The notes under the pieces: generated by a model
Database searches by the model: none
Seen by the model: only the letters and a program-made list of their open reading frames with translations
What the model was told of the DNA's origin: nothing
Shown: in pieces, positions 1-50,770 of the stretch
How the letters are laid out: the number at the start of each line of letters is the position of its first letter
How positions within the stretch are numbered: the stretch's first letter is position 1
Program-made: the position numbers and the translations under genes
Source of the DNA: Candidatus Marinacidobacterales bacterium
Lineage (GTDB): Bacteria > Acidobacteriota > Vicinamibacteria > Marinacidobacterales > DATDRI01
Length of the DNA: 64,000 bases
Assembly (NCBI GenBank): GCA_965197825.1
Contig: CBDANW010000003.1
Coordinates: 2,121,566 to 2,185,565 of the forward strand
Direction: 5' to 3'

Positions 1-113
1 CCACAAATCAGCAGCTTAGACGCCCTTGGAATCCGCGCAGAATCCAGGGTATTTCGCGCCGCAGGGCTGACTTCCGACCCATGGGGCTGGCGGATGAATA
101 AATAGAAGGCACA
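1..113. repeat. Window-truncated copy of MITE-Y (deletion derivative of an IS481-like IS). It ends in the terminal 23-mer cggatgaataaatagaaggcaca.
   Basis: bp 1-105 are near-identical to 36437-36540. The terminal 23-mer recurs at 1855-1877, 20208-20230, 36675-36697 and 46766-46788, and as the reverse complement at 3501-3523 and 8039-8061. Confidence 0.5.
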
Positions 114-115
114 GC

Positions 116-500
116 TGACCCACTGGGCGTTCGAGTATTTTGACCAGACGCGTGGAAAACTTGACAGTACCAGAGTGAGTGATGCTCGTGAGGTCAAAAT
201 ACTCATACGGCTTCCCAATGGTAGAAACGTAGCAACCCGCCAAGCCGTTTACGAAAGCGCACCTTGCGCTCGGACTGAGGTTGTGCTCCGCAAAAAGTCG
301 ATCCAGCGGTACGCGATCTTCCTTTTTGCGGATCACAGGCCGACCGGAGCGGGCGGGTCTTGGCTGGAAACCAATGGGAAACAGGGAAAACCAGGCAATT
401 CGGGGCCATTTTGGGTCTGATCTTGAGTTCGGTTGTATTTTTGGACAGGACGCGGTGCGGACGGGTGGCGTTCACCTGTAGCCCGCCAGGACACATCTGG
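116..500 (-). mobile_element. Decayed IS481-family element. Both terminal regions are juxtaposed and a 3' transposase fragment remains.
   Basis: 120-160 matches the IRL region 11620-11660 and 175-290 matches the IRR region 10464-10560 of the intact copy at 10464-11660. ORF 203..496 ends ...SERKVRFRKRLGGLLRFYHWEAV, matching the C-terminus of the transposase at 10477. Confidence 0.5.
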
Positions 501-520
501 CTGTCAAGTGTAACGCCTTG

Positions 521-1459
521 TTATGCCGTTCCGTCCTTCCGACTCCCAGAGATCGGATGCGCGTACACTAGGCCCCTCGTTTGCGCGGCCTTCACCTTGG
601 TGTCGATCATGTCGCGAAACGAGACATGTCCTTCCAAGACTAGGACGAGGTCTTCGCCGTCGATAAAGATTGTCTTGATAGCCTTTCCTCGAACGACGCT
701 GTCGATGACGTTGCTGCTGAATCCGTGAACTGACACGAAGAGGCCGCGCCCGTACATCTTGCCTTCGATCTTTGCGACGAACTGGTAAACGGGCTCGTTG
801 GCGGCTGAGATATCCTGCCACTTCGCCTCGACCAAGTAATGTTCGCCGTCGTACTTGATCGCGCCGTCTATCTGTTCTCCATAAGTCTTGAATGGCTCAG
901 TCACCTCGAGGGACTCGACTTTTGCCAGTTCTACCAGAATTCTCTCTAGAGCGTAGCCGCGTTGCTGGGGTTTCAGTTCACCCGCGTGCAGCCGCAGGAA
1001 CTCATCGAGCAATTCTCGTAGGTCCTTCTCGGGGCGCTGCCTCTCAACCTGTTGCCCTTCACGACGCGTTCGGTCAGCCTTGATCTTGGCGTCTCTAATC
1101 TCCTGCAATTGGCAAAGATGGGAAATACATCGCTCTGCTGTAGCCCGGTTGAGCTTCTTGAGTGTTTCGAAGTAGTACGGGTCAAATCGGTTCCAGGTGA
1201 CGAGTGAGCGCAACATCGCTCGGAAGGGGCCGAGTCCACTGTCCGTTCGCGAGTCCAGTCGCTCGAATATCACGTCGACCATCGCTACCCTCGACAGGCC
1301 CCGTTCTTTGAAATCCTCGATCTCGCGCAACTCCCTGCTTGTACAGTCGTGGTCTCGAAAAAATCCGAGGATGTCTTTGCGCGGCCAAAAAATCGCGAGG
1401 ACGCAGTCCTTCATGCATCCCTTGATATCTGAGGGGAACGACATTTTCCGAGCTGTCAT
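521..1459 (-). CDS. Mrr-cat (PF04471-like) restriction-endonuclease-fold protein with an uncharacterised coiled-coil N-terminal domain
   Basis: The C-terminal half carries the Mrr motifs: RGYALERILVELAKVE (G..FE), EQIDGAIKYDGEHYLVEAKWQ (D...E.K), GLFVSVHGFSSNV, TIFIDGEDLVLVLEG. ATG start at 1457-1459. The N-terminal 150 aa have no recognisable motif. Confidence 0.6.
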   Translation of the reverse strand: MTARKMSFPSDIKGCMKDCVLAIFWPRKDILGFFRDHDCTSRELREIEDFKERGLSRVAMVDVIFERLDSRTDSGLGPFRAMLRSLVTWNRFDPYYFETLKKLNRATAERCISHLCQLQEIRDAKIKADRTRREGQQVERQRPEKDLRELLDEFLRLHAGELKPQQRGYALERILVELAKVESLEVTEPFKTYGEQIDGAIKYDGEHYLVEAKWQDISAANEPVYQFVAKIEGKMYGRGLFVSVHGFSSNVIDSVVRGKAIKTIFIDGEDLVLVLEGHVSFRDMIDTKVKAAQTRGLVYAHPISGSRKDGTA

Positions 1460-1786
1460 CTGTCTGTTGAACGCATCGAATCGACCAGCATCACGGCTTG
1501 CCGTTCACCTGCGGCACGCCGGGCTGATGCAGGTCTTGAGTTCGTTCGTGTTTTTAGACACGACGGGAGTAGCGGTCGAGTGGGAGGCCGGTTGGACAGT
1601 CGCATTCTAAGCAGGGAGCACTCCTACAACTACAAACTGCGCGCTACATGGTTGACGCCGGAGGTGATCCGAGCGACGGCGCGGCTCGCCCAGGTTAGGA
1701 ACTGGCTGAGTGTGGAAGAGACTCTAGCACTCGTCGCCAAAGCCTAAGCCGCCGGTGACACTGTGATCTTGGTGGAGATCGACCCC

Positions 1787-1877
1787 GTCCTGTGCCAAAA
1801 CTCGGATCTTTCGAAATAGACCATAAATCAGCAGCTTAGCAAGTTCGGTGCGCGCGGATGAATAAATAGAAGGCACA
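1787..1877. repeat. Mini-MITE of about 90 bp: the MITE-A TIR segment fused to the IS-Y terminal 23-mer
   Basis: It starts gtcctgtgccaaaactcgg...cagcagcttag (the MITE-A end) and continues caagttcggtgcgcgcggatgaataaatagaaggcaca (the IS-Y end). This is the same composite as 36398-36697 with the interior deleted. Confidence 0.5.
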
Positions 1878-1883
1878 CCCCCG

Positions 1884-1968
1884 TGGACTTCCTGCGTCGT
1901 CGTTTTCCCATGGACGCCTCCAGACGCATTGTCGCGCCTCGGTTGGTGTCCACAAAACCCGGGCAGGG
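1884..1968. repeat. Solo terminal fragment of the IS3-family element found at 62460-63920
   Basis: About 85 bp near-identical to 63835-63920 (cctgcgtcgtcgtt.tcccatggacgcctcca.gcgcattgtcgcgcctcggttg.tgtccacaaaacccgggcaggg). Confidence 0.5.
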
Positions 1969-1996
1969 CCAGCCTCTGTGAATTTCGAGAACGCCT

Positions 1997-2728
1997 CTAG
2001 GATTCGAGCTTTCGGGCTCCGCTCGTATTTTCGGACACGACGTGGTCGGTGCTATTTGTAGTTGGAGCTTTCTGGGCCTTCTTGTCCGACGCTGTCGAAA
2101 CTAGCTTCTCGAATCGTTCCTCGCGGTCATGCCTCGCCACATACCACTCGTCAATCAAGTTTTCGATGAGTGAAATAAGTAACTGTGCCTCGTTGGATTC
2201 AACGTCAACGATGACGTTGATGTCTTTCTCCATATGCGCACCAATGTTGCCAATACTGCGAACAGCGTCGATTGCATTCCATGTGAGCTCGTCCACTTTC
2301 TCTTTGAGAGCTTTGACCTCATCGACTAAACGATCCTTACTGATACCCCAGAAGTCGCGAATCATGCCTTGGAGACAACGACGCGCAAGCGTCGCTGAGG
2401 CCTTCGGCGAAAGGGCAGCAATCAGACAGGCTTCTCCGTAGTCCTCGCGTATCGCGTCTGGCACATAACTTGGTAGCACCTTCATTTTGGCTGGCGGAAC
2501 GAGCTCCCAACTGTGGCGAACTTTCCCGAATGACTCATCGTCGCTGATTTGGATTTTGAATGAGTACTCGCCACATTTGGGATTCGGACACGAGGTGGCA
2601 GTCCAGCACACCGATTGTATGCCGTACTTGTTGCCGCGCCCGAAGTTAGAGCTGTTGACCGCGAAATTGTTCCCGCTGACCGTTGAGTAGTGGCCGCAGA
2701 AGGGACACTGGTACGGGAAAGTGCTCAT
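1997..2728 (-). CDS. DUF4145-domain protein with an N-terminal four-Cys zinc ribbon
   Basis: Zinc ribbon: CPFCGH...CPNPKCGE. The C-terminal WNAIDAVRSIGNIGAHMEKDINVIVDVESNEAQLLISLIENLIDEWYV matches the DUF4145 signature. ATG at 2726-2728. An in-frame ATG at 2768-2770 and a GTG at 2783-2785 are alternative starts. Confidence 0.6.
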   Translation of the reverse strand: MSTFPYQCPFCGHYSTVSGNNFAVNSSNFGRGNKYGIQSVCWTATSCPNPKCGEYSFKIQISDDESFGKVRHSWELVPPAKMKVLPSYVPDAIREDYGEACLIAALSPKASATLARRCLQGMIRDFWGISKDRLVDEVKALKEKVDELTWNAIDAVRSIGNIGAHMEKDINVIVDVESNEAQLLISLIENLIDEWYVARHDREERFEKLVSTASDKKAQKAPTTNSTDHVVSENTSGARKLES

Positions 2729-2768
2729 CTTCCTTCTTGCATCTTCCTTCTTGCATCTTCCTTCTTGC
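2727..2768. repeat. Three perfect tandem copies of the 14-bp unit atcttccttcttgc, plus a degenerate fourth copy
   Basis: Direct reading of 2727-2776. On the coding (minus) strand each unit reads gcaagaaggaagAT(G), a Shine-Dalgarno-like GAAGGAAG followed by ATG. The repeat abuts the start codon of the DUF4145 gene. Confidence 0.8.
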
Positions 2769-2934
2769 ATCCTCCTTATCGCCACTGTTCTCAGCTTTGA
2801 CGAGCGTGTCAGTTCCGGGATGGTGGGTGCTTCCGCAATTAAGTGTTGGCGGCCAGCCCCTAACCGGTCTGCGTGCTAGAGTTTGAACCAGAATTCCGAA
2901 GACACAGTTCTCTCATCGTCAGGGCCGAGCCAAA

Positions 2935-3370
2935 GTGAAGAATCGCAGATGTCTCAATCTCGCATGTCCGTTGCGGGGCAAAGTCAGTTCCGGAAACATC
3001 GTTCGCCACGGATTCTACCGAACCAGGTCCGGGAAACGCCGTCGATACCGGTGCGGCGAGTGCGGAAAGACGTTCTCCTCGACGAAAGGCACGCCCTACT
3101 ACCGTCTCCAACATCGAAGAGCTACTTTCGATGGGGTCATCGCTCTCAGAGTCGAGGGTGTCAGCATTTCCTCGATTTCCCGGATCAAAGGGATTGCCTG
3201 GAACACCGTCGCCCGCTGGCTCGAGAAGGCAGCCCAAGTGTGTCGTCGATTCAATCACAGAAGGATCGCTGGCTTCGCTGCCGAAGAGCTTCAAGCCGAC
3301 GAGATTCGCACGTTCGCGGGCAACAAGAAGACACCGAGTTGGGTCTTCGTTACAATCGAAGTCTGGTCTC
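2935..3370 (+). pseudogene. IS1-family transposase, N-terminal fragment (InsA-like zinc ribbon/HTH plus the start of InsB)
   Basis: CLNLACPLRGK...RYRCGECGKTF...EGVSISSISRIKGIAWNTVARWLEKAA...ADEIRTFAGNKKTPSWVFVTIEVWSRR. Beyond 3370 the ORF runs into an antisense IS256-like fragment. Confidence 0.5.
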
Positions 3371-3374
3371 GGCG

Positions 3375-3523
3375 GATGTGTCCCGAGGTCCGTGGAAAAA
3401 GAACGGCACCCTCCACTCCGTCATCAGAGTATCATATCAGGCGGCAACCTCCGCGTGTTCGAGAACCTCGCTCAGACGTTGGTAGCCGTCGATGCGTCGT
3501 TGTGCCTTCTATTTATTCATCCG
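3375..3523 (-). pseudogene. 3' fragment of an IS256-family transposase gene (duplicate of 24975-25100), followed by the IS-Y terminal 23-mer
   Basis: 3378-3500 is near-identical to 24972-25100. Minus-strand translation gives ...LRRIDGYQRLSEVLEHAEVAA. 3501-3523 is tgtgccttctatttattcatccg. Confidence 0.45.
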
Positions 3524-3594
3524 CCAGCCCATGGGTCGGAAGTCAGCCCTGCGGCGCGAAATACCCTGGATTCTGCGCGGATTCCAAGGACGTC

Positions 3595-3647
3595 TAAGCT
3601 GCTGATTTGTGGTCTATTTCAAAAGGGCCGAGTTTTGGCACAGGACG
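3595..3647. repeat. Terminal segment of MITE-A (ctaagctgctgatttgtggtctatttcaaaagggccgagttttggcacaggac)
   Basis: The same about 53-bp end segment recurs at 8291-8343, 17741-17795, 18019-18073 and 45900-45952, and in reverse complement at 1787-1839, 12163-12215, 19817-19870 and 23535-23590. Confidence 0.6.
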
Positions 3648-3659
3648 GGGTCAAACAGG

Positions 3660-3943
3660 TGCGCGAGCCGAATCCGCTGTGCCTCGGAGACCAGCCTGAA
3701 GAGGGCCCCATCGCCGTCGAAGCTCCAGGGGCGACCGGCCTCTACCAACTCCAAGCGCGGCTCGTCGTGTCGGGCGAGAAGCTGGCTGCCAACCCGGCCA
3801 TCCAGTGTCTTATAAGTCAGTTCGAGCGCGTCCGCTCCATACCACTGGGCGCTGACAACCGTGATGGGGCCGTCCGGCAGATGCCTCTGACGGTAGTCGT
3901 CGGTTGGAGTTCCTCTAGTTTCACACGGCGCTAGCGGACACAT
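3660..3943 (-). pseudogene. N-terminal stump (about 95 aa) of a large helicase-like protein, truncated by MITE insertion. It resembles the conserved N-terminus of SNF2/RapA-like defence helicases.
   Basis: MCPLAPCETRGTP...SFDGDGALFRLVSEAQRIRLAHLFDP is followed directly by the MITE-A sequence (VLCQNSALLK is translated repeat). The identification is from memory of the ...RLAHLFDP..(LPHQ) N-terminal motif and is uncertain. Confidence 0.3.
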
Positions 3944-3951
3944 ACCCCACC

Positions 3952-4117
3952 GGTGCTTCCGCCATCAAGTGTTGGTGAAATGACGCTAAAACACTACAGT
4001 GCATTAAGGTACAACCAAAATAGAGCTCGTGGCCTTTGCTGCGCGCTAAATGGAGCGTAAGCGCCTCTTTTGCAAAGGGATGCGTACACATCACCAACAG
4101 TGAACAGTGCAAGCACC
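3952..4117. repeat. MITE-B (166 bp) with imperfect TIRs ggtgcttccgccatcaagtgttggtga / tcaccaacagtgaacagtgcaagcacc
   Basis: Near-identical copies at 23759-23924 and 36756-36921. The ends are inverted-repeat related. Confidence 0.6.
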
Positions 4118-4344
4118 GAAAGCAGGTGCTTCGAGCTGCCATCTAGGTCGTTGCAGTTGCGGTGGTGGTGCTGACCGTCTACTCGGTGCAGGTCACGCAG
4201 ACCAAGTCGTTTGCATGATTACCAAGAAAGCTCCGCCGAGTATCGGCAGTGGGGTGCGATGGCGAACCATATACTTGGAGACGATAGCCTGGGAAATGGA
4301 GATGCCCAGCTTTGCAGCTCGCCAGTCTCCGGAAAATCCGGGGC

Positions 4345-4384
4345 GGTTCACTATTTCAAGAGGGCCGAGTTTTGGCACAGGACG
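4345..4384. repeat. Fragment of the MITE-A terminal segment
   Basis: ggttcactatttcaagagggccgagttttggcacaggacg. Confidence 0.4.
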
Positions 4385-4404
4385 CCGTTGTGGCGAACCT
4401 GTTG

Positions 4405-5769
4405 TTACGCCGAAGTGGCCACCTCGGGACGTACTTCCGCCGCACCAAGAATCCCGAACGACTTGTCGATGACTGTCGCCAAGCCGTCGCGTAACGGCGT
4501 CTCTCCGACGCCAGCCGTCAACTCCTTCAGTAGTGCCGCCACCGGCAAACCAATACCGACGATTTCCGCTCCCGCCCCGCCGGACAGCCGACGAATCCGA
4601 AGCCGCGTGCTTCTAGGTTCTTCAGCCGTCGCCGGATACAGCAGCAGGGATGTCGGCACCCCACCCGAGGCTGTCGCCCCGAGGGCGAACGCATAAAGGA
4701 ACGTCTGGTAAATGTCGCCCTGATCGAACCCGCGCTCATCGTACAACTTATACTTTGCGTCGATCGCCACCCGGCAATCCGACTCTCCCCGCCGCTCGAC
4801 GACGACATCCGGGATGATGCTCGTGTAAGGACGCTGGCTCGAGACATTCCACACGACCGACTTGAAAGGGCTCTGAGACGTCACGCGATACCGGGCCGCC
4901 GGCAGGACCTGCTCGACGATTCGGGTAACAAAGCGCTCGAACAACTGGTTCATGTTCAGCAGAAACGAGAACGACTGGGCCTCACCGGGCGCGAACAGAT
5001 CATCGATACCCAGAGCGTCGAACAGCAGCCATACCAACTGGTGGGCCGTCTCGTAGTGCGCGTTCAACCGATTGTAGGTCATGGTTGTCCGCGCGCCCGC
5101 GAGGTTGAGCTGATTGGTGTCGCATATTGGCTCGAGCACGCCCCGAAGCCGCGAGATGCGGCGCTGCAGCCCGACGGAGGTGACCCGCGGAGACGCCACC
5201 TGTAGGGCCGCGGTCAGCAACTGGTTCTCGACGACATCGTGTTCCAACTCGTCGAAGCGGCAGATGATGCGGTCGAGCTGGCCGAATCGTTCGAGTAGCT
5301 GGCGGTCGCCGAGAATCCGGCCACGCGCTATCAGCAGGTCGTCCTCGCGTTCGACATAGCCTGACAGCAGGCCCCGTCGCAGCACCCGCTCGCTGGCCTC
5401 AACGAAGAGCAGGACGACGAGCTCGAACAGGCTATCACCGGAAGCCTCCAAAGTCGCACCGTCACTAAGGCGAATCAGCGCGTCGACCCCCGACGCGTAC
5501 TCGAGTAGCCGCACCAGCCCGAGCTGGTCGCCGGTCACCTTCGGTACGACCCGAATCTCGACGGTCGGCAGGCGCACAACACCCACCCACGACTGGGTCC
5601 GAACGCGCAGCCCCCGACGCAGTTCCTCGATCTGCAGCCGGTTATCGGTCGAGGCCGACCACTTCTCGACAACGGCGCGGTCCTCCTGTGTGAGTGCGAC
5701 GCCGTGGTAGAACTCACTCGTCCACTCAGTCAAGGGCCCAAGGAGCCGCACACCCTCCGGACCAGTCAT
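4405..5769 (-). CDS. mcrC: McrC, the PD-(D/E)xK nuclease subunit of the McrBC modification-dependent restriction system
   Basis: FSFLLNMNQLFERFV and PDVVVERRGESDCRVAIDAKYKLYD...GDIYQTFLYA are the McrC nuclease motifs. The ATG at 5767-5769 overlaps the mcrB stop (ATGA). Confidence 0.85.
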   Translation of the reverse strand: MTGPEGVRLLGPLTEWTSEFYHGVALTQEDRAVVEKWSASTDNRLQIEELRRGLRVRTQSWVGVVRLPTVEIRVVPKVTGDQLGLVRLLEYASGVDALIRLSDGATLEASGDSLFELVVLLFVEASERVLRRGLLSGYVEREDDLLIARGRILGDRQLLERFGQLDRIICRFDELEHDVVENQLLTAALQVASPRVTSVGLQRRISRLRGVLEPICDTNQLNLAGARTTMTYNRLNAHYETAHQLVWLLFDALGIDDLFAPGEAQSFSFLLNMNQLFERFVTRIVEQVLPAARYRVTSQSPFKSVVWNVSSQRPYTSIIPDVVVERRGESDCRVAIDAKYKLYDERGFDQGDIYQTFLYAFALGATASGGVPTSLLLYPATAEEPRSTRLRIRRLSGGAGAEIVGIGLPVAALLKELTAGVGETPLRDGLATVIDKSFGILGAAEVRPEVATSA

Positions 5770-7988
5770 GCCGACGAGACTCCACCTTCACCGAATTCCC
5801 GCGCCAACGCCGCAATCAGTTGCTCGGCGTCGTCAACCTTCTCCGCGTCCAGCGCGCCAGCGTTGGCATCGACCAGCTCACTGCCGATGAACTTCGCCAG
5901 CGTCGCGTACTCGTCGTAGCAGTACTCCTGGAGCAGCGGCAGAATTTCCTCTCGGAACCGGGCCGCGAACTCCTCGACCTCGTCCACCGGCTGACCGTCG
6001 ACCAGCAGATACGAATGACCGACTTGTTTTTCGCGTCCCTCGAATCTGGCGATCCGCTGATTCAGCCCATCGAGGAAGTCATCGAGCGCGAGGTCACCGA
6101 CTACGGCGCCGTGCAGCAGCTCGCTGTCGGGCATGCACTCGAGAAACGCGAAGCGCCGTCGCAGGGCAGCATCAAGTAACTTGATGCTGCGATCAGCGGT
6201 ATTCATCGTACCCAGCAAAAACACGTTGAGCGGCACGCTGAAGGTCTCCTTGCTCTGCGGCAGGGTCACGGTGAGGCCACGCTTGTCTCGCTCGAGCAGC
6301 GTCAGCAGCTCACCCATGATCTTGGCGACATTGCCACGGTTGATCTCGTCTATAAGCAGGAGATACGGACGACCGGGATTCACCTGGGCGGCGCGGCAGA
6401 CCCTTTTGAAGACGCCGTCTTCGAGCGCCAGCGACAACCCGCCAGCTCCGCTAGAGTCAGGACGAAACCCTTCGATGAAATCCTCGTATGTGTAGGACGG
6501 ATGAAACGTCATGCGGGTCAGCTGGCCCACGCTGGCCGTCGTGCCCGAATCACAGGCCTGCTCCAGGATGGCACGCTGTGGATGACGTTCCGCCAGCTGC
6601 ATGAAGAGGTGCTCAGCTTCGGTCTCCGTCAGCGCGAAGAGCGTGCCCTGGTTGTTGAACCGTATCGGCTCACTCTGCGCCATTACCGCGTCTTGCGTCA
6701 GCTCGGCATGGCTCAGTCCTCGGTCGAGTTGCTCAACAGGCTCTAGCCCAATAGTTGGTGAGTTGTCGCCGACGCTCTGGAACTCCCGACTCACCCGTGC
6801 AAGGGCTACGACGCGCTTGTCGGGCGTACTCTGGTACCCGATTACTAGATCACCCCGTTGTACCAGCGGATAGTTTCGTTTGAGGCGACCGTATCTATAG
6901 TCGGCTTTGCCGTCCCGAAAGAGCTGGTCCCAGCTCCACTCCTTCCGGTTGGCCACCGCCCACCAGACCCGCGACGACAGGTGGGAGGTCGAGAGCTCAC
7001 GCTCCGCCTCGCGCAGACGATCAGAATCGCCAAGCACCGCGTCGGCCTTCTCGTGGCCGATCTGTCTCAACAACCACCAGACCGCGAATCGCCTGGCCTT
7101 GTAGGTCTTTCCTGTTCCCGGTGGCCCATACAAAATGAGCTGACCTTTGCGCTCGAGCGCCGTGGCGAGGCGCCCGTACAAAGGATCGACCACCATCGGT
7201 TCGCGCTCCTTGCCGCCCACGATGGTCCTCAGCAGCGTGTCAGGCACTTTGGCGATCGTTGCGGTTGCCCAGCGCTTCTGTGGCACCACACTTTGCTCGT
7301 AGGTCGTATCCCATTTAACCGCCACCGTGTGCCGGTATTCGGAACGCTCATCGGCCCATCGATATCCCGGTTCGACGACCGCTCCCAGGGCAAGCACTCG
7401 GCTGATACCTCGATTGGCTACGACGAGGTCGCCGGGCTCCAGCTCGTTAAGCGTCCACAGCTGGTTGCCCTTCCGTTTCGCCTGGACGGGCCCCTTGTAG
7501 GGGTAAGCCTCCTCGAACCGAATATGGAATAACTCCTTTGATTCAAACTGCGAGAGATCGCCCACTTCATCCCAGCCGACGCAGATGTAGCCCTCCCGCA
7601 AGCAATCCTCCCAGAACCGCGCATCCTTTCCTGGTTCAATCTTCAACACCCGCCTCGTCTCACGAGGATCGCGCCACTTGTATAGCAGTCGCTGCAGCTC
7701 CTCAGTGTTCCAGCCCTCCACCGCACGTTCGCGCCGCAAGGCTGCAAGCACGAACCGATTCAGCGTCACTACCGACGACGCGTTGACCTCCTCCAAGGGG
7801 CGATCCAACGAACGCAGGTAATGTCGCAGGTGGGTGGTCGAGTAGACGGGCAGCACCTCCTTGGGGAAATACACGTGGAGCGACTTCAGTTTCAACGCCG
7901 GTCCGAGTCCTAGCGTCTCGAGCGCGTCGATGCGTTCCCACTCGCCACGCTCTGCTAGCTCGAATGCCTGCAAGAACTCGTTTCGCAA
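5766..7988 (-). CDS. mcrB: McrB-family GTPase (AAA+) with an unusual domain order: an about 105-aa N-terminal region, EVE-like domain 1, Walker A, inserted EVE-like domain 2, then the AAA+ remainder
   Basis: Walker A LILYGPPGTGKTYKARRFA. TFHPSYTYEDFIEGFRP, LLLIDEINRGNVAKIMGELLTLLE and LLGTMNTADRSIKLLDAALRRRFAF match the E. coli McrB motifs. EVE-like 1: FWEDCLREGYICVGW...EPGDLVVANRGISRVLALGAVVEPGY...HTVAVKWD. EVE-like 2, about 210 aa inserted between Walker A and the FHPSYTYEDF block: WWAVANRKEWSWDQL...LVQRGDLVIGYQSTPDKRVVALARVSRE...IGLEPVEQLDRGLSHAELTQD. TTG start at 7986-7988 preceded by gagggagg. Confidence 0.8.
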   Translation of the reverse strand: MRNEFLQAFELAERGEWERIDALETLGLGPALKLKSLHVYFPKEVLPVYSTTHLRHYLRSLDRPLEEVNASSVVTLNRFVLAALRRERAVEGWNTEELQRLLYKWRDPRETRRVLKIEPGKDARFWEDCLREGYICVGWDEVGDLSQFESKELFHIRFEEAYPYKGPVQAKRKGNQLWTLNELEPGDLVVANRGISRVLALGAVVEPGYRWADERSEYRHTVAVKWDTTYEQSVVPQKRWATATIAKVPDTLLRTIVGGKEREPMVVDPLYGRLATALERKGQLILYGPPGTGKTYKARRFAVWWLLRQIGHEKADAVLGDSDRLREAERELSTSHLSSRVWWAVANRKEWSWDQLFRDGKADYRYGRLKRNYPLVQRGDLVIGYQSTPDKRVVALARVSREFQSVGDNSPTIGLEPVEQLDRGLSHAELTQDAVMAQSEPIRFNNQGTLFALTETEAEHLFMQLAERHPQRAILEQACDSGTTASVGQLTRMTFHPSYTYEDFIEGFRPDSSGAGGLSLALEDGVFKRVCRAAQVNPGRPYLLLIDEINRGNVAKIMGELLTLLERDKRGLTVTLPQSKETFSVPLNVFLLGTMNTADRSIKLLDAALRRRFAFLECMPDSELLHGAVVGDLALDDFLDGLNQRIARFEGREKQVGHSYLLVDGQPVDEVEEFAARFREEILPLLQEYCYDEYATLAKFIGSELVDANAGALDAEKVDDAEQLIAALAREFGEGGVSSA

Positions 7989-8290: not shown

Positions 8291-8575
8291 GCTAAGCTGC
8301 TGATTTATGGTCTATTTCAAAAGGGCCGAGTTTTGGCACAGGACGCGGTTCTCCTCTCGCAGGTAGTCAATCACATCCTGCTGCTGGCGGTTGACCCAGC
8401 CAGAACGAGCAGTAAGAATTGCACATGGTCCGTCATGATGGCTCCAAAGATAACACCTTCGGGCCAGACGATTGTAAAGCCCACCGGCCTTGACCCGGTC
8501 GCAAAACACAGACTCTAAGTTGCTGATTTATGGCCTATTTCAAAAGGGCTGAGTTTTGGCACAGGACGGGATGGA
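8291..8575. repeat. Nested copies of MITE-A: a terminal segment, an inverted internal IS-Y-derived segment, then a second terminal segment
   Basis: 8291-8343 and 8520-8572 are the about 53-bp terminal segment. The interior on the minus strand encodes ...RQQQDVIDYLREENRVL, a transposase N-terminal remnant also seen at 19990-20040. Confidence 0.5.
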
Positions 8576-17994: not shown

Positions 17995-18073
17995 TTGGTC
18001 CGGTCGCAAACACAGACACTAAGCTGCTGATTTATGGTCTATTTCAAAAGGGCCGAGTTTTGGCACAGGACGG
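17995..18073. repeat. MITE-A terminal copy
   Basis: ggtccggtcgcaaacacagacactaagctgctgatttatggtctatttcaaaagggccgagttttggcacaggac. Confidence 0.6.
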
Positions 18074-31329: not shown

Positions 31330-32727
31330 CTAGGCCTTGTTGGGCTTCGCGTCATAGATCGGCGCGAGCTTCGCTTTCCCGACTTGCTGGCGATACTCAC
31401 TTCGGAGAGCACCGATCCTCTGCCACTCGCCGCTTGCGTCGCGGCAGTACCAGTAGTCCCACCCGTTCCCCGATTTGCTGGTCACGGCAGAGAAGGCCTT
31501 GCTCGGGCTGTCGTGGCACTCGTTGTTTACCTCCAGTGCCTCGCCGGGCTCGGTGTGATTTAGAAGCGGCGCTTCGAAAAGAGCTACTGGCTTTTGCGTC
31601 GAATGCCCCGTGGGCGCGTTCGCCGAAGTCGCGTCCCCACCGAACGGGTTATTGTTCGGAACCGACCACACTGTGGTCTGTGTGCGGTCACCCTTCCATC
31701 GGGACGTACGACCTGTGCGCACGGCATACCAACAGACCTCATGCCGCCAATGGTAATCCGCACGGCTGAAAACAAAGTGCTGCTTGCACCAAATAATTTG
31801 GGACCGGATTTCAAGCCCGGCCGTGCGCAACGCGGTAGCGACCACCCCACCGTGAAGGCTCGCGTGCCAGCAATAAGCAACATCACCGGGGAACAGCTGG
31901 AACGCCGCCGTCCAGTCGACCCGGTCATCATTGGCCACGGGACCCACTGCATGCTTCTTGCCGCCATCGACCCCGGCGCGCCATTTCGGATCGTATTGAA
32001 CTCCGTACGGGGGATCCGTGGCCATGAGGCAGGGCTTCCGGTCGCCGAGAAGGGCCTGGACGTCAGCGGAGTCGGTGCTGTCGCCGCAGCGTAGGTGATG
32101 CGCGCCGAGTTGGAACTGGTCGCCGCGCACGATGGAGGTCGGCCGGGACTCGACAGTGGCATCGGGATCGGTGCGGCCTTCGGTGATCGGCCCGGGTCCC
32201 ACGGCGGCGCGCCATTCCGGCGCCGTCCACTCCCGCTTTATGCTCGGGTCTTGTTCGGCATAATCGAGCAACCTCGCATTCCAGCCGCTCAGCTCGCTTG
32301 CGCGATTGTCGTCGATGATGACCCGCGTCTTTTGCGGCGGGCTAAGATTTGCCCGCTGCACGAACACCGGCCGTGTGCCGTCGACACTCACCACGATGGC
32401 GTCTCGATAGCCGGCCTGTACCGCAGCCTCCCGCATTCCGTTGCCCGCCAGGATCACGCGCTCTTCGTCAATGACGCCCGAGCGCGCAGCCCCCACGCGA
32501 TCGAGGGACGCCGCAATGAAATCAATCCCGCGGGTCATATGCGTTCTCGGGTTGTCCTCTAGCGGCGTCAGCTTCGTGAGCGGGACGACCGACACCTCGA
32601 CCAGCGAGGGCGTCTCCGCATTTTTCGGATCGCGTCTGGAAGCAGCGTTGTCGGCGGGTACGGTTTTCGGCACAGCGGCACGCGGGCGCTTGGCCTTGGT
32701 GCGACGGCGTGAACTGGATTTCGTCAT
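31330..32727 (-). CDS. ParB-like nuclease domain fused to an N6-adenine/N4-cytosine DNA methyltransferase (DPPY type)
   Basis: ParB/Srx motif DRVGAARSGVIDEERVILAGNGMREAA. MTase motif IV CLMATDPPYG. Motif I-like WSVPNNNPFGGDATSANAPTGHSTQKPVALFEAPL. Basic N-terminal tail. Confidence 0.7.
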   Translation of the reverse strand: MTKSSSRRRTKAKRPRAAVPKTVPADNAASRRDPKNAETPSLVEVSVVPLTKLTPLEDNPRTHMTRGIDFIAASLDRVGAARSGVIDEERVILAGNGMREAAVQAGYRDAIVVSVDGTRPVFVQRANLSPPQKTRVIIDDNRASELSGWNARLLDYAEQDPSIKREWTAPEWRAAVGPGPITEGRTDPDATVESRPTSIVRGDQFQLGAHHLRCGDSTDSADVQALLGDRKPCLMATDPPYGVQYDPKWRAGVDGGKKHAVGPVANDDRVDWTAAFQLFPGDVAYCWHASLHGGVVATALRTAGLEIRSQIIWCKQHFVFSRADYHWRHEVCWYAVRTGRTSRWKGDRTQTTVWSVPNNNPFGGDATSANAPTGHSTQKPVALFEAPLLNHTEPGEALEVNNECHDSPSKAFSAVTSKSGNGWDYWYCRDASGEWQRIGALRSEYRQQVGKAKLAPIYDAKPNKA

Positions 32728-45657: not shown

Positions 45658-45952
45658 GTCCTGTGCCAAAACTCGGCCCTTTTGAAAGACCATGGCTGTA
45701 ATTTAATGCACTGTAAAGTCTTAGTGTCATTTTGCCAACACTTAATGGTGGAAGCACCCATGAGGTCTGTGTGAGCGGCAGGGCTGCCTGACCAACAGTA
45801 GGAATTGCACATGGTACGTCATGATGGATCCGAAGATAACACCCTCGGGCCAGACGATTGTAAAGGCCACGGCCCTTGGCACCATCGCAAAACACAGACG
45901 CTAAGCTGCTGATTTATCGGCTATTTCAAGAGGGCCGAGTTTTGGCACAGGA
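45658..45952. repeat. MITE-A/B composite (295 bp), inverted relative to 39521-39838
   Basis: gtcctgtgccaaaactcggcccttttgaaagaccatggctgtaatttaatgcactg...gagggccgagttttggcacaggac. Confidence 0.6.
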
Positions 45953-45959
45953 CGGGATG

Positions 45960-47088: not shown

Positions 47089-48489
47089 GGTCAAGTCTTA
47101 ATTTTCCTGTCAAATCTCCGTACGGTTCCCCGCGCTCGGTTAAGCTGCTGATTCCTCCGACGTGCCTTGCGGGAGAAGCTCGTTGCGAAGCTCCTCGACT
47201 TTCCTGGCGGCGAAGACATCCATCCTCACGCCGCGCCATTTGTTTGCGACGGCCAAGAGCACAGCGAACGAGAGTTTCATCGCGGCCTCCTCGGTGAAGA
47301 AGTGAGGAATGACCTTTGTGCGACGTTTGTGCTCTCCGAACGTGCGCTCAAGTAGATTCGACGTGCGAAGCCTTTTGTGATGCGCCGCAGGAAGGCGTAG
47401 CGCCTGAAGACACGCTTCGAGGGTCTCTTCCATGCACTTCATCGCGCTCGGGAATCGTTGACGGTACCGAGCGATCACCTCCCGACCCTTCTTCAGCCCT
47501 TGCTCGTAGCTGTTCGCATGGAACGACTCAAGGATGGCCGCCTTGAGTTCGTCGCGCACTTCCTTCGGAGCCTTGCCCAGGATGTTCTCGAGGCGGTGCT
47601 TCTGGCAACGTTGCTTGAGGCTTCGAGGGAAGACCTCTGCGATCGCTTTGAGCACTCCAGGATTCCCGTCCGTCACGATGAGCAACGGCTCCCTCATTCC
47701 TCGGGCCACTATCTCCTGCAAGAACCCCTTCCAGTTCTCGTAGGATTCTCGGTTGCCGACACCGATATGAAGAAGAACTCGCGTCCCATCAGCGCGATAG
47801 CCGGTCGCAACGAGGATGGGCTCTTTCCTCTCCGCTCCTTGGTGGTAGCGCAGGTACGTGCCGTCGAGCTCGAGATACAACAGCTTCTCGTTCGAGAGAT
47901 CCCGTTTTCGAAACGCCTCGAAATCCTCCGACAGACACCGTGTGACCCGGCTCACCACCGACTTCGAGACACCCGTGCCGCTCAGCACGTCCGCGAACGT
48001 CGCCTCAATGTCACGCGTCGACATCCCGTGGACGTACATCCGCGCGATCAGTTCATCGAGTTTCTCGGTCCGGCTCACGTAGGCGTCGAGAATCTTTGAC
48101 TGAAACACCTTCTCTGTTTCTCGTACCCGCGGCACTTGCACCGTCACCGCTCCCTCGCCCGTGAGGACCCGATGCGACTCATACCCGTTGCGTCGTCCCT
48201 TCTCCTTCGTCGTTGCCGGAGCGTTCTCATAGTAGTTTCGACCCAACGCCTCCGTCACCTCGCGCTCCAACGCATATTGAAGCATCATCTGAGCTCCCGA
48301 CCGGACGATCTCCGAGAGATTCATCTCCCCAAATACCAGTTGTTCCTCGAACTGCTTGAGCAATCGCTGACTCGGTAGTACCTTTCCCATGATGTATGGT
48401 TCTCCTTTTCTGTCCCCATGACGGGGACGGGTTTGAGCTTGGGGAACCATACATCGTTTTTCTTTGACAGGAATCTTAAGACATCACCC
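47089..48489 (-). mobile_element. IS256-family element, copy 3, flanked by a 9-bp TSD cacatcctg
   Basis: The TSD is at 47080-47088 and 48490-48498. It is inserted within the MTase coding sequence. Confidence 0.85.
47140..48390 (-). CDS. IS256-family transposase
   Basis: Identical to the other copies except for a few substitutions (for example EIVARG in place of EMVARG). Confidence 0.85.
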   Translation of the reverse strand: MGKVLPSQRLLKQFEEQLVFGEMNLSEIVRSGAQMMLQYALEREVTEALGRNYYENAPATTKEKGRRNGYESHRVLTGEGAVTVQVPRVRETEKVFQSKILDAYVSRTEKLDELIARMYVHGMSTRDIEATFADVLSGTGVSKSVVSRVTRCLSEDFEAFRKRDLSNEKLLYLELDGTYLRYHQGAERKEPILVATGYRADGTRVLLHIGVGNRESYENWKGFLQEIVARGMREPLLIVTDGNPGVLKAIAEVFPRSLKQRCQKHRLENILGKAPKEVRDELKAAILESFHANSYEQGLKKGREVIARYRQRFPSAMKCMEETLEACLQALRLPAAHHKRLRTSNLLERTFGEHKRRTKVIPHFFTEEAAMKLSFAVLLAVANKWRGVRMDVFAARKVEELRNELLPQGTSEESAA

Positions 48490-50770
48490 ACATCCTGTGC
48501 GAGGTCCCCTTGAGTTCACGCAGATAGCGCTCCCCTAGAGCGACGAAGGCTTGCCGAAGTTCTGGATGGACACGCTCGGGATTTAACGGAAACGCCAGTA
48601 GGTCTCGGCGGTTCAAATTCCGACAATCGGAGAGCACATTCCAGAACCAGAAGAATGTTGACGAACTCAACAGCGCCACAACTGCGCTCACCGACTCCGC
48701 TGATGCGAAGCCAAGCTCCTTCAGTTCTGACGGAGGAACACGACGGCCAGTTATAACGTCGATGATCTCTGGAACGAAATCCAGAAAAGCAAGAAAATAG
48801 CCGAACTTACGAGTGTAGTAAACGCGGTAGCGCGTCGCGACAGTAAGCGCATTGGCCAATCTCTCTCGTTCCACAGTTGCTGTCAGACGGCTGAACGCTT
48901 GAACCTCTAGGCGGCTTCCTAGCTTTTCAAGTGCTGCAGGGAACACCGAGAAGTTTGAGTGTCCTGGTGCGTACTCTATCCGCGACTGAAACACGTTTTG
49001 AAATGCCGCTCGCCGCCATCGAAGGTACTGCGTCGTAAATATTGTCGCGTCCTTCGGCGTGAAGCGTCGCGCCACAAGGATGGTGAGGCGTTTCTGGGCT
49101 CCATCAAACAATTGGGACGGGCGGTTCGCATAGCATGAAACCCACGCTGAGTCGACCGAGTTCAACACAAACTTTTGCAGTGGCGCAAACCCGTCAGTGC
49201 CGAATATCGATATCGGGAGGATCAAACCCAACCGACCCCTTGCACGGAGAAGGGCCAGGGACCGTTCCGTACAAAATGAGTACAAGTCGCCACATTGTTC
49301 ACTTCGAAAACCACTTACTTCGTAGGTCTTCTTGATGTCTTTGTACTCCACATACGGCGGATTCCCAATGATCACGTCGAACCCACCCTCATGCACGATT
49401 CTGTAGAACTCCACGAACCAATGGAATGGCTGATGTGACTTAAAGCCACTTGGCATAGACGGCCTTCTTCAAGGACTTGACGCCATAATTGCCCGCCAGA
49501 TAGTGGTTGAGTTCGTTGTCCAGATCAGCCAGGCGCTCGCGCACGACCTCCTTATTCTCCACCGGTACGGACCCGTCGCCTTCGACTTGACGATCTCGGA
49601 AGGCATCGAACTCCTCCTGTAGCTCCGCAGCCTTCAGGGAGATCTCCTCCATCGTGTTTTCAAAATCGAGCTTGCTCGTCGCCGCCCGCCTCACCTCGTC
49701 ATAACTGGCATAGCCGACGAGTGTGTTGCCGACACGGATGTTGAAGTCGATGTCCGGCAACGGCTCGATGCCAAGGTTGTCGTACGAGCCGTCGGGGTCC
49801 ACCTGGGCGGCGAGTTTGAGGAAGAGCCGGAGCTTACAGATCTCAACCGCCTCCTCCATGATGTCTACGCCGAAGAGATTGTTAAGAATGATGCTCTTGT
49901 AAACGAAGTACCGGCGGTTGGGATGCGCGGCAACCCTCTCCAGGATTCTGCGAAAGTCGGTAAACTTCTCTCGCCGACCCTTTTCGCCGGAACGCTCAGC
50001 GTCTTCGACGAACGCCTCCATGCGGTCGAGACAGGCTTCGTACAGCGGGTCGAGAATATTAACTGCAGCAAACAAAAATGCTCCCGATCCACACGTCGGA
50101 TCGAGAACGGTGATCTTCTCGATAGCGTTCCACAAGGCGCGCAGGAGTTCCGGACCTTCGCAATTCTCGATCACATCCTGCGCGAACTGTCGGATGTCGA
50201 GGTTTAGAGTGATCGGCTCATTGATTTCTCAGACTTCCCCGTCCGCAAGCTTAGTCTTGATTTCCTCGTAACGCTTTCGGCGCGCAACCACTTCGCGCCA
50301 AGTCTCAGTCGGTAAGCCAAACTCTGAAGTTGCCAGCTTGTTCCAACCCTTACGTAATTCCAGGGTCTCCACGGGTCCGTCGCCGACCAACTCGTGCAGA
50401 GTCGGCGTATCAAGCCCCATGGCGATCTCCTCTTGAAGCGGTAACCCTGCCCCATGTCGTATTGCTGGATAGATGTAGCGGTCGGGGTCGTTTCTCAGCA
50501 GATCCCACACCGTTGGGCCCTTCGGATTCTCGAACGCGACCTTGCATGTGGATCGGGCATCGTCGAAGAGGAACGGAAGAACCGTGGTCTTGCTGTTGTA
50601 CTCGGTGATGTCCTCCTTCGTGTAATACGCCCCCATTTGCTTTTGGTTGATGTACTTCTCGAAGATGTATCCCAGAACGTCTGGGTTGATTTCGTTGTCG
50701 GCCCGGAGAGGCCGCTCGTCCAAGTGCCACTGGTACTGATCAAAATAGTCAAAGATGCGCTCGAAAGCTG
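48490..50770 (-). pseudogene. PglX/MmeI/Eco57I-like N6-adenine DNA methyltransferase body. It is 5'-truncated by IS5, 3'-interrupted by IS256, and split into three frames.
   Basis: 50229..50770: ...NPDVLGYIFEKYINQKQMGAYYTKEDI (GxYYTP motif). 49440..50174: ITVLDPTCGSGAFLFAAV (motif I) and NNLFGVDIMEEAVEICKLRLFL. 48476..49456: FDVIIGNPPYVEYKD (NPPY). Confidence 0.6.

Follow-up and report, generated by a model that had tools for sequence, protein, structure and literature searches.

PD-T7-4 of Escherichia coli is a phage-defence gene that reportedly goes back to the screen of Vassallo et al. in 2022. It has been renamed RAZR, for ring-activated zinc-finger RNase (Nature 2026, PMC13017515), and consists of a single protein, in which a four-cysteine (Cys4) zinc ribbon at the N-terminus is combined with a DUF4145 domain, a divergent HEPN RNase, at the C-terminus; replacing either R146 or H154 by alanine abolishes defence (PMC13017515). 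RAZR forms higher-order oligomers, and a 24-mer assembles around ring-shaped phage proteins (Gp77 of SECphi27, the portal proteins of T7-like phages); once assembled, it cleaves single-stranded RNA and blocks translation, i.e. it acts by abortive infection. Phage specificity is set by the zinc-ribbon domain, the most variable part of the protein, and RAZR functions alone from a plasmid in E. coli. Activation by oligomerisation on rings, cleavage of single-stranded RNA and the abortive phenotype have been described only for the proteins of E. coli and K. variicola (PMC13017515). Here we analyse a 64-kb stretch of contig CBDANW010000003.1 of a Candidatus Marinacidobacterales bacterium (henceforth the window), in which a gene for a RAZR-like protein (gene 1) is followed on the same strand by a gene for a nuclease of the Mrr type (gene 2). 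From the evidence below, these are very probably two independent single-gene immunity genes that became neighbours by rearrangement at miniature inverted-repeat transposable elements (MITEs) and insertion sequences (IS) within a defence island, and not the parts of a module.

For the second gene, the closest described proteins are E. coli Mrr and other solitary Mrr_cat nucleases, in which the catalytic domain is C-terminal and no cognate methyltransferase accompanies the enzyme. In E. coli Mrr the N-terminal half is a winged-helix domain (Mrr_N). MspJI, AspBHI and the PADLOC candidate PDC-S02 likewise combine in one gene a specificity domain at the N-terminus with a nuclease at the C-terminus, their specificity domains being SRA-like or PUA/EVE-like readers rich in beta-strands. 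A survey of HEPN domains published in 2013 recorded those of the DUF4145 type in the same polypeptide or the same operon as restriction-type nucleases and McrBC (PMC3710099).

Co-occurrence of the two families and the repeats between them

The sequence-only reading of this DNA had taken the zinc-ribbon/DUF4145 protein and the Mrr-like nuclease for a two-gene defence module. That they are two genes on the same (minus) strand is borne out by the open reading frames (ORFs), by the family alignments and by a metagenome contig (L080) on which the same two genes were called independently. The module itself did not hold. We collected 79 Mrr-like loci from one-genome-per-species collections with flanks of up to 10 kb (60 of them with at least 3 kb on both sides), and no DUF4145-family relative was found within 10 kb of any, even at E-values up to 10; as a positive control, the hidden Markov model of that family picked up the gene of the window (E 2e-112). 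The reciprocal search was equally negative, none of the 80 metagenome loci carrying the DUF4145 family (530 kb of flanks) having a member of the Mrr-like family. Outside the population of the window, the two families were never found together in these loci, the outcome that the sequence-only reading had itself named as speaking against a module. No other neighbour family of the RAZR-like gene was common to more than five of its 80 related loci. McrBC was considered as a partner of the DUF4145 gene and rejected: relatives of the McrB and McrC found in the window occurred in none of the 80 RAZR-like and none of the 79 Mrr-like loci by phmmer, a search that may have missed divergent McrBC because it used a single sequence.

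Close copies of the Mrr-like gene, taken from its 90%-identity protein cluster on contigs of related populations, also have other neighbours. At 92–99.6% nucleotide identity, they lie in three different neighbourhoods on four contigs, all without a DUF4145 gene (Table 1). The largest unit shared with a contig that is not of the window type is the L081 segment, while ~510-1463 is common to all four; only the Mrr-like gene itself is present in every one of them, and in the blastn alignments the similarity stops at the gene or not far from it. With L081, the match to the window breaks off within the MITE that lies between the two genes, from which we infer that their adjacency is best explained by recombination or insertion at the repeats. 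The adjacency as such is found again on L080 and apparently in a third assembly of the same population, and these assemblies, being ~99.95% identical to the window, are not independent observations. In the sister populations represented by L082 (2196-5796) and L083 (1744-5344), the Mrr-like gene is located directly downstream of genes for an AAA ATPase (weak nSTAND3 match) and an 863-aa S8 peptidase, which are another candidate defence pair.

The spacer between the two genes measures 537 bp (1460-1996) and holds, as had been noticed from the sequence, a MITE-like repeat beside the end of an IS: the repeat abuts a copy of the IS terminal sequence, of which 1847-1877 matches 83-113. The 34-nt core of the MITE (CTATTTCAAAAGGGCCGAGTTTTGGCACAGGACG) is present in 15 copies in the window, where chance would give 0, at sites that include 1786-1819, 3614-3647, 8312-8345, 18039-18072 and 45921-45954. 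The setting is, as in the earlier description, a defence island riddled with IS, and with MITEs as well. MITE copies were observed at breakpoints between defence-gene cassettes. The IS terminal sequence at the beginning of the window has an inverted copy further on, the two agreeing at 99% over 85 nt within the window and extending to ~148 nt when L080 is used. Enclosed by this pair are the two defence genes and a zinc-finger transposase-like ORF (2935-3597); the arrangement resembles a composite element and, given the density of repeats, may be coincidental. Just past window position 1, L080 carries an rve_3 transposase fragment, which is consistent with a tentative assignment of the IS end to IS3, as in the sequence-only reading.

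Two points weigh against treating the genes as independent. Many of the metagenome loci are short, only 28 of the 80 RAZR-like loci having at least 2 kb on both sides, and adjacency in a single population could permit functional cross-talk that is invisible to comparative genomics.

Table 1. Features of the window, and segments that it shares with contigs carrying close copies of the Mrr-like gene
Feature	Position in window	Strand	Evidence or remarks
Stand-alone Mrr_cat (PD-(D/E)xK) nuclease gene (gene 2, Mrr-like), 307 aa	521..1444	-	Pfam Mrr_cat, homologues, AF2 model
Nuclease core D198-GAIKYDGEHYLV-E211-A-K213 (312-aa numbering)	821..868	-	read from sequence
Family-specific helical N-terminal region, residues 6-160	980..1444	-	no library match; AF2 model
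RAZR / PD-T7-4-family gene (gene 1, RAZR-like), 243 aa	1997..2728	-	Pfam DUF4145, PADLOC PD-T7-4, PDB 9y9c, alignment A2, phrog_1305
HEPN motif R157-SIGNIGA-H165 (R-x7-H)	2234..2260	-	read from sequence; family alignment
MITE-like repeat and IS-end fragment in spacer	~1781-1877	.	repeat families D5, D7, D9, I4-I16
IS terminal sequence	1-113	.	inverted copy with 3501-3612 (inverted repeats I1, I14)
McrC	4405-5769	-	Pfam McrBC E 4e-46; L080 gene calls
EVE-domain McrB-like AAA_5 GTPase	5766-7988	-	Pfam AAA_5 and EVE; L080 gene calls
Segment shared with L081 (1355 bp)	447-1801		98.8% identity; Mrr-like gene by PIN_12 gene and DUF499 gene
Segment shared with L082 and L083	510-1521		92% identity; Mrr-like gene by AAA ATPase and S8 peptidase genes
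Segment shared with L084	181-1463		99.6% identity; Mrr-like gene by transposases and BREX (PglZ, BrxL)

The RAZR-like gene

The ORF of gene 1 (1997..2785, minus strand) would encode 262 aa from a GTG at 2785, and 243 aa from an ATG at 2728; the latter is the true start, homologues in the family alignment beginning there. The product has the N-terminal Cys4 zinc ribbon and, after a linker, the C-terminal DUF4145 (HEPN RNase) domain, both of which had been recognised from the sequence. Pfam DUF4145 (PF13643) matches residues 100-170 with E 2.9e-10 (40.5 bits vs a cut-off of 23.1 bits). The cysteines of the zinc ribbon are C8 and C11 (CPFC at 8-11) and C47 and C52 (CPNPKC at 47-52); among 25 RAZR-like relatives, the second pair is invariant and the first is conserved in at least 90%. 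The PADLOC model for PD-T7-4 (PDLC04109) aligns from position 14 to 201 of its 211 with residues 6-215 at E 7.1e-16, the match being judged by E-value, and the cryo-EM structure of RAZR (PDB 9y9c, chain OA) is matched at E 2.6e-6 with the single sequence and 3.9e-9 with the family profile, in an alignment that spans the linker and the HEPN part. The two key residues of the HEPN motif, R157 and H165, are invariant in the 25 family members of alignment A2 and align with the catalytic R146 and H154 of E. coli RAZR. The protein also matches a prophage protein family (phrog_1305, E 1e-35), and its own family is a very large one (over 7,800 hits).

By these homologies, the upstream protein is assigned as a distant member of the RAZR/PD-T7-4 family. 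It shares with RAZR the Cys4 zinc ribbon, a conserved linker, the DUF4145/HEPN domain with an aligned R-x7-H and a similar size, and, like RAZR, it is the product of a lone gene without a conserved partner and has homologues in prophages. It differs in its length (243 aa vs 219 aa in E. coli), in a low-complexity C-terminal tail, in belonging to a very large environmental subfamily, and in a divergent zinc-ribbon region, HMMER aligning the linker and HEPN instead. Weighing against the assignment, the identity to E. coli RAZR is about 25–30% over the linker and HEPN part, and the zinc-ribbon region has no significant alignment to it alone; the first CxxC nevertheless stands at the same place as in 9y9c. 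The claim that the locus holds an uncharacterised system is to be divided: it fails for the RAZR-like protein, which belongs to a characterised single-gene family, and it stands for the Mrr-like protein insofar as the N-domain of the latter is without annotation.

The activity, oligomerisation and triggers of the window protein would, by homology, be those of RAZR. It would idle as an oligomer until its variable zinc-ribbon domain binds a ring-shaped phage protein, e.g. a portal; assembly around the ring would position HEPN dimers such that R157 and H165 form an active RNase, and cleavage of single-stranded RNA would then stop translation and abort the infection.

Immediately 5' of the start codon of gene 1, and including it, there is a 14-nt tandem repeat (ATGCAAGAAGGAAG) of 3.7 copies (2726-2777, minus strand; Tandem Repeats Finder score 97, 97% matches). 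Every unit holds an ATG behind a Shine-Dalgarno-like run. As three units make 42 nt, the first of these ATGs (2770, preceded by AAGGAGG) is in the reading frame of the gene and would lengthen the protein by 14 residues; gain or loss of one unit would put it out of frame. The array could be a slipped-strand translational switch for the RAZR-like gene.

The Mrr-like nuclease family

The ORF of gene 2 extends over 521..1459 (minus strand), or 312 aa if translation began at the in-frame ATG at 1459. Both the gene call on L080 and an alignment with 23 homologues put the true start at M6, which leaves 307 aa, so that D198, E211 and K213 of the 312-aa numbering are D193, E206 and K208 of the actual protein. 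The Mrr-type nuclease motifs that had been read in the C-terminal half proved sound: Pfam Mrr_cat (PF04471) matches residues 169-272 at E 3.1e-7 (30.9 bits vs a 21-bit cut-off), and RGYALE, D198...E211-A-K213 and FIDGEDL are all present and mostly invariant. The D, E and K of the core do not vary among 24 family members, and in a set of 46 members, with relatives of 28–43% identity included, they are at least 90% conserved.

The family is well defined. At E up to 1e-3 there are 736 homologues, nearly all of 295–315 aa and aligning from end to end, most of them of ~305 aa and starting at M6. Those with 47–74% identity to the window protein are spread over bacteria (Proteobacteria, Planctomycetota, Acidobacteriota, Verrucomicrobiota, Cyanobacteria, Firmicutes, a spirochaete and a metagenome-assembled genome of Binatia) and archaea (Methanoperedenaceae, Methanosarcinales, Methanobacterium), and the family is also carried by conjugative plasmids. 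No homologue was found among 50,697 phage records. Compared with its close copies, the window gene shows ratios of non-synonymous to synonymous change (pN/pS) of 0.17–0.30, the differences being mostly synonymous; the gene is intact and under purifying selection. Homologues in other genomes are labelled 'restriction endonuclease' by PGAP, and no PADLOC model matches significantly (mREase_IV at E 1.6e-4, nuclease half only; PDC-S02 at E 3e-3, weakly and in the nuclease half). A search of the PDB with the family profile gave a single match (E 0.065), which was rejected as a coiled-coil artefact. A distant relative, also labelled 'restriction endonuclease' and 26% identical over residues 43-296, is found on the K. 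pneumoniae plasmid NZ_CP026185 (L167 4869-5747) and in more than 1,100 Klebsiella plasmid records, beside the maintenance genes vapBC and ccdAB.

The C-terminal Mrr_cat domain, its D-ExK core intact, and the lack of a cognate methyltransferase are features that the protein shares with E. coli Mrr. It is not a canonical Mrr, however, as the N-terminal half, already noted to be unlike the winged-helix Mrr_N, is a private helical domain. Residues 1-165 gave no Pfam or NCBIfam match even at E up to 1, and no PHROG match. Structure prediction, one of the checks proposed along with the sequence-only reading, was made with AlphaFold2 (AF2) from a 46-sequence alignment including the relatives of 28–43% identity, and yielded a model with a mean predicted local distance difference test (pLDDT) score of 93, the N-terminal region scoring above 90. 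It replaced a first model from 24 close homologues, in which pLDDT fell below 50 from residue 253 and the Foldseek matches were meaningless. In the model, a helical bundle (5-94) is followed by a 36-residue helix (100-135), by helices 142-153 and 159-176, the last of which runs into the nuclease, and by an alpha/beta nuclease core. The predicted all-helical character, together with the failure to match any of the three libraries, sets this half apart from Mrr_N. Foldseek matches in the PDB comprised only nuclease domains (Nt.BspD6I, MspJI, AspBHI, FokI, HindIII, Avs4, Cap4 and Cdn1), and the N-domain has no PDB match by sequence or by fold. The layout, one gene in which a specificity domain precedes the nuclease, is that of MspJI, AspBHI and PDC-S02, the nuclease domains of the first two being among the best fold matches, but their readers are rich in beta-strands whereas this one is all-helical. 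As for PDC-S02, its N-terminal half matches not the Mrr-like protein but the N-terminal domain (residues 114-235) of the McrB-like protein in the window.

Used by itself in an exhaustive HMMER search of 1.84 billion 50%-cluster representatives, the N-domain matched only 114 of them. Near-full-length matches were proteins of ~300–314 aa (one of 382 aa) with the domain at the N-terminus, and Mrr_cat was present in eight of ten divergent matches tested, which indicates that the domain is private to this architecture. Within the family, mean pairwise identity amounts to 75% in the nuclease domain and to 64% in the N-domain, and the N-domain is therefore not a hypervariable sensor. We tentatively propose that the ~305-aa Mrr_cat family is an uncharacterised stand-alone immunity nuclease, its private helical N-domain being a new specificity or sensor module.

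The neighbours of the Mrr-like gene elsewhere fall into two classes. In 29 of the 79 loci it lies directly 3' of two genes, the first AbiEi-like (weak AbiEi_2/HTH match) and the second annotated as an AbiEii/AbiGii nucleotidyltransferase, with junctions that overlap or are ~16 bp apart. This apparent operon is often followed by a KAP NTPase gene or by QatABCD, the latter on the Delftia plasmid NZ_CP065697 (L165 5002-7918); another example of the trio is at L008 ~2416-5297. The 29 loci make up one subclade (79–100% identity), whose closest relatives (L029 and L030) and all other clades are without AbiE. A literature search for a system of Mrr_cat and AbiE returned nothing specific, and the trio is possibly an undescribed three-gene variant of AbiE. 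The association is limited to one lineage and does not extend to the window, where no AbiE genes are found at the locus and the DNA 5' of the Mrr-like gene consists of the MITE and then the RAZR-like gene.

The 87 ORFs directly flanking the gene in the remaining 50 loci have no recurrent family in common, no single PADLOC family being matched by more than four of them, and for this reason we consider the gene to be normally solitary. There is no recurrent DNA methyltransferase among these 87 immediate neighbours in 50 genomes, and in the window none lies within ~28 kb of the gene pair (the nearest methyltransferase-like ORFs are at 31330-32727 and 48476-49456), just as the earlier reading had it. 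These neighbours are a mixture of housekeeping genes and defence genes (MADS, Gabija, OLD, AriA, EcoRV, ResIII, STALD), and over the family as a whole Qat, BREX and McrBC also occur nearby. The gene is solitary, encodes an intact nuclease, is horizontally transferred and is often found in defence islands. Both genes of the window do look defence-related. Against this, housekeeping genes make up some half of those immediately next to the Mrr-like gene in other genomes, and a defence role of the Mrr-like gene is accordingly likely but not proven.

With regard to expression, the 62 bp 5' of the Mrr-like gene are conserved in other contexts, which suggests that it has a promoter of its own. A scan of the locus, with a consensus that may not be that of the host, gave no match to a sigma-70-like promoter, and such terminator-like sites as it gave were weak. 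A 55-aa ORF divergent from the Mrr-like gene (1580-1747, plus strand) was predicted as a gene on both L080 and L081; given its position outside the segment conserved in L082-L084, it is probably spurious. Beyond the RAZR-like gene, the McrC and McrB-like genes (Table 1) are an independent Type IV restriction system that adjoins both genes.

Possible roles of the nuclease and significance of the locus

Gene 2 is predicted to encode a solitary Mg2+-dependent PD-(D/E)xK DNA endonuclease with the core E172...D198...E211-x-K213, in which target recognition and/or dimerisation is most likely the task of the helical N-domain and the long helix. Self-DNA would be spared either because the enzyme needs a non-self feature of the DNA or because it stays inactive until infection. 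We lean, with due caution, towards the first of these, namely a Type IV-like enzyme that would cut a modified or otherwise non-self DNA feature. It is preferred to a trigger-gated enzyme because there is no cognate methyltransferase and because the N-domain evolves slowly across phyla and archaea; the preference is weak, as this domain resembles no known modified-base reader. Two facts tell against a Type IV-like enzyme: nothing directly indicates dependence on DNA modification, the N-domain being unlike SRA, EVE or winged helix, and the matched nuclease folds also act as triggered effectors in Avs4 and Cap4.

An abortive-infection effector, in which the N-domain would hold the nuclease off and sense a cue and oligomerisation through the long helix would unleash indiscriminate DNA cleavage, is a less likely explanation, if one to be taken seriously. 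The presence of the triggered effectors Avs4, Cap4 and Cdn1 among the fold matches speaks for it, as do the lack of a methyltransferase and of a recognisable DNA-reader domain, a predicted long helix that suits dimerisation and the translational coupling of one subclade to the AbiEi/AbiEii toxin-antitoxin pair. Typical sensors of phage proteins diverge fast, however, the zinc-ribbon domain of RAZR being an example, while the N-domain is strongly conserved across phyla and archaea, at the mean pairwise identity given above; nor was any trigger- or ligand-binding fold detected.

It is improbable that the gene lies outside immunity altogether, e.g. as a nuclease of DNA repair or recombination or as a maintenance gene of mobile elements. 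The housekeeping neighbours would agree with such a role, as would the distant relatives in plasmid maintenance regions beside vapBC and ccdAB and the lack of any significant match to a defence-database model. What speaks against it is the patchy, horizontally transferred distribution across bacteria and archaea, the varied genomic contexts of close copies, the frequent position beside known defence systems and the absence from phage records.

Very unlikely, in turn, is that the window copy is an orphaned remnant of an AbiEi-AbiEii-nuclease system in which it was the third component and that it has little function alone. The 29 loci with AbiE are what suggests this, and they are essentially one lineage spread by plasmids and integrative and conjugative elements, in a tight subclade outside which AbiE is lacking, whereas the window gene is intact, under purifying selection and equipped with its own conserved upstream region. 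Finally, a single two-gene system, e.g. of sensor and effector, for which the shared strand and adjacency in assemblies of one population and the described association of DUF4145 HEPN domains with restriction-type nucleases and McrBC (PMC3710099) could be invoked, is hardly credible against 0 co-occurrence in 159 sampled loci in both directions, the other neighbours of near-identical copies, a spacer with a MITE where the L081 homology breaks, and a RAZR that works alone (PMC13017515).

The immediate consequence is that a false two-gene system is removed from the list of candidates, and the locus cleanly illustrates the way in which an adjacency that mimics an operon arises by MITE/IS recombination in defence islands. 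The RAZR family gains a distant environmental member and with it a very large subfamily, useful for mapping the diversity of zinc ribbons to phage triggers. The locus as a whole is ordinary; the modest lead that comes out of it is the orphan nuclease family along with its AbiE-linked lineage, a widespread and strongly conserved family that current defence databases do not model and that, as a single 0.9-kb gene, is cheap to test.

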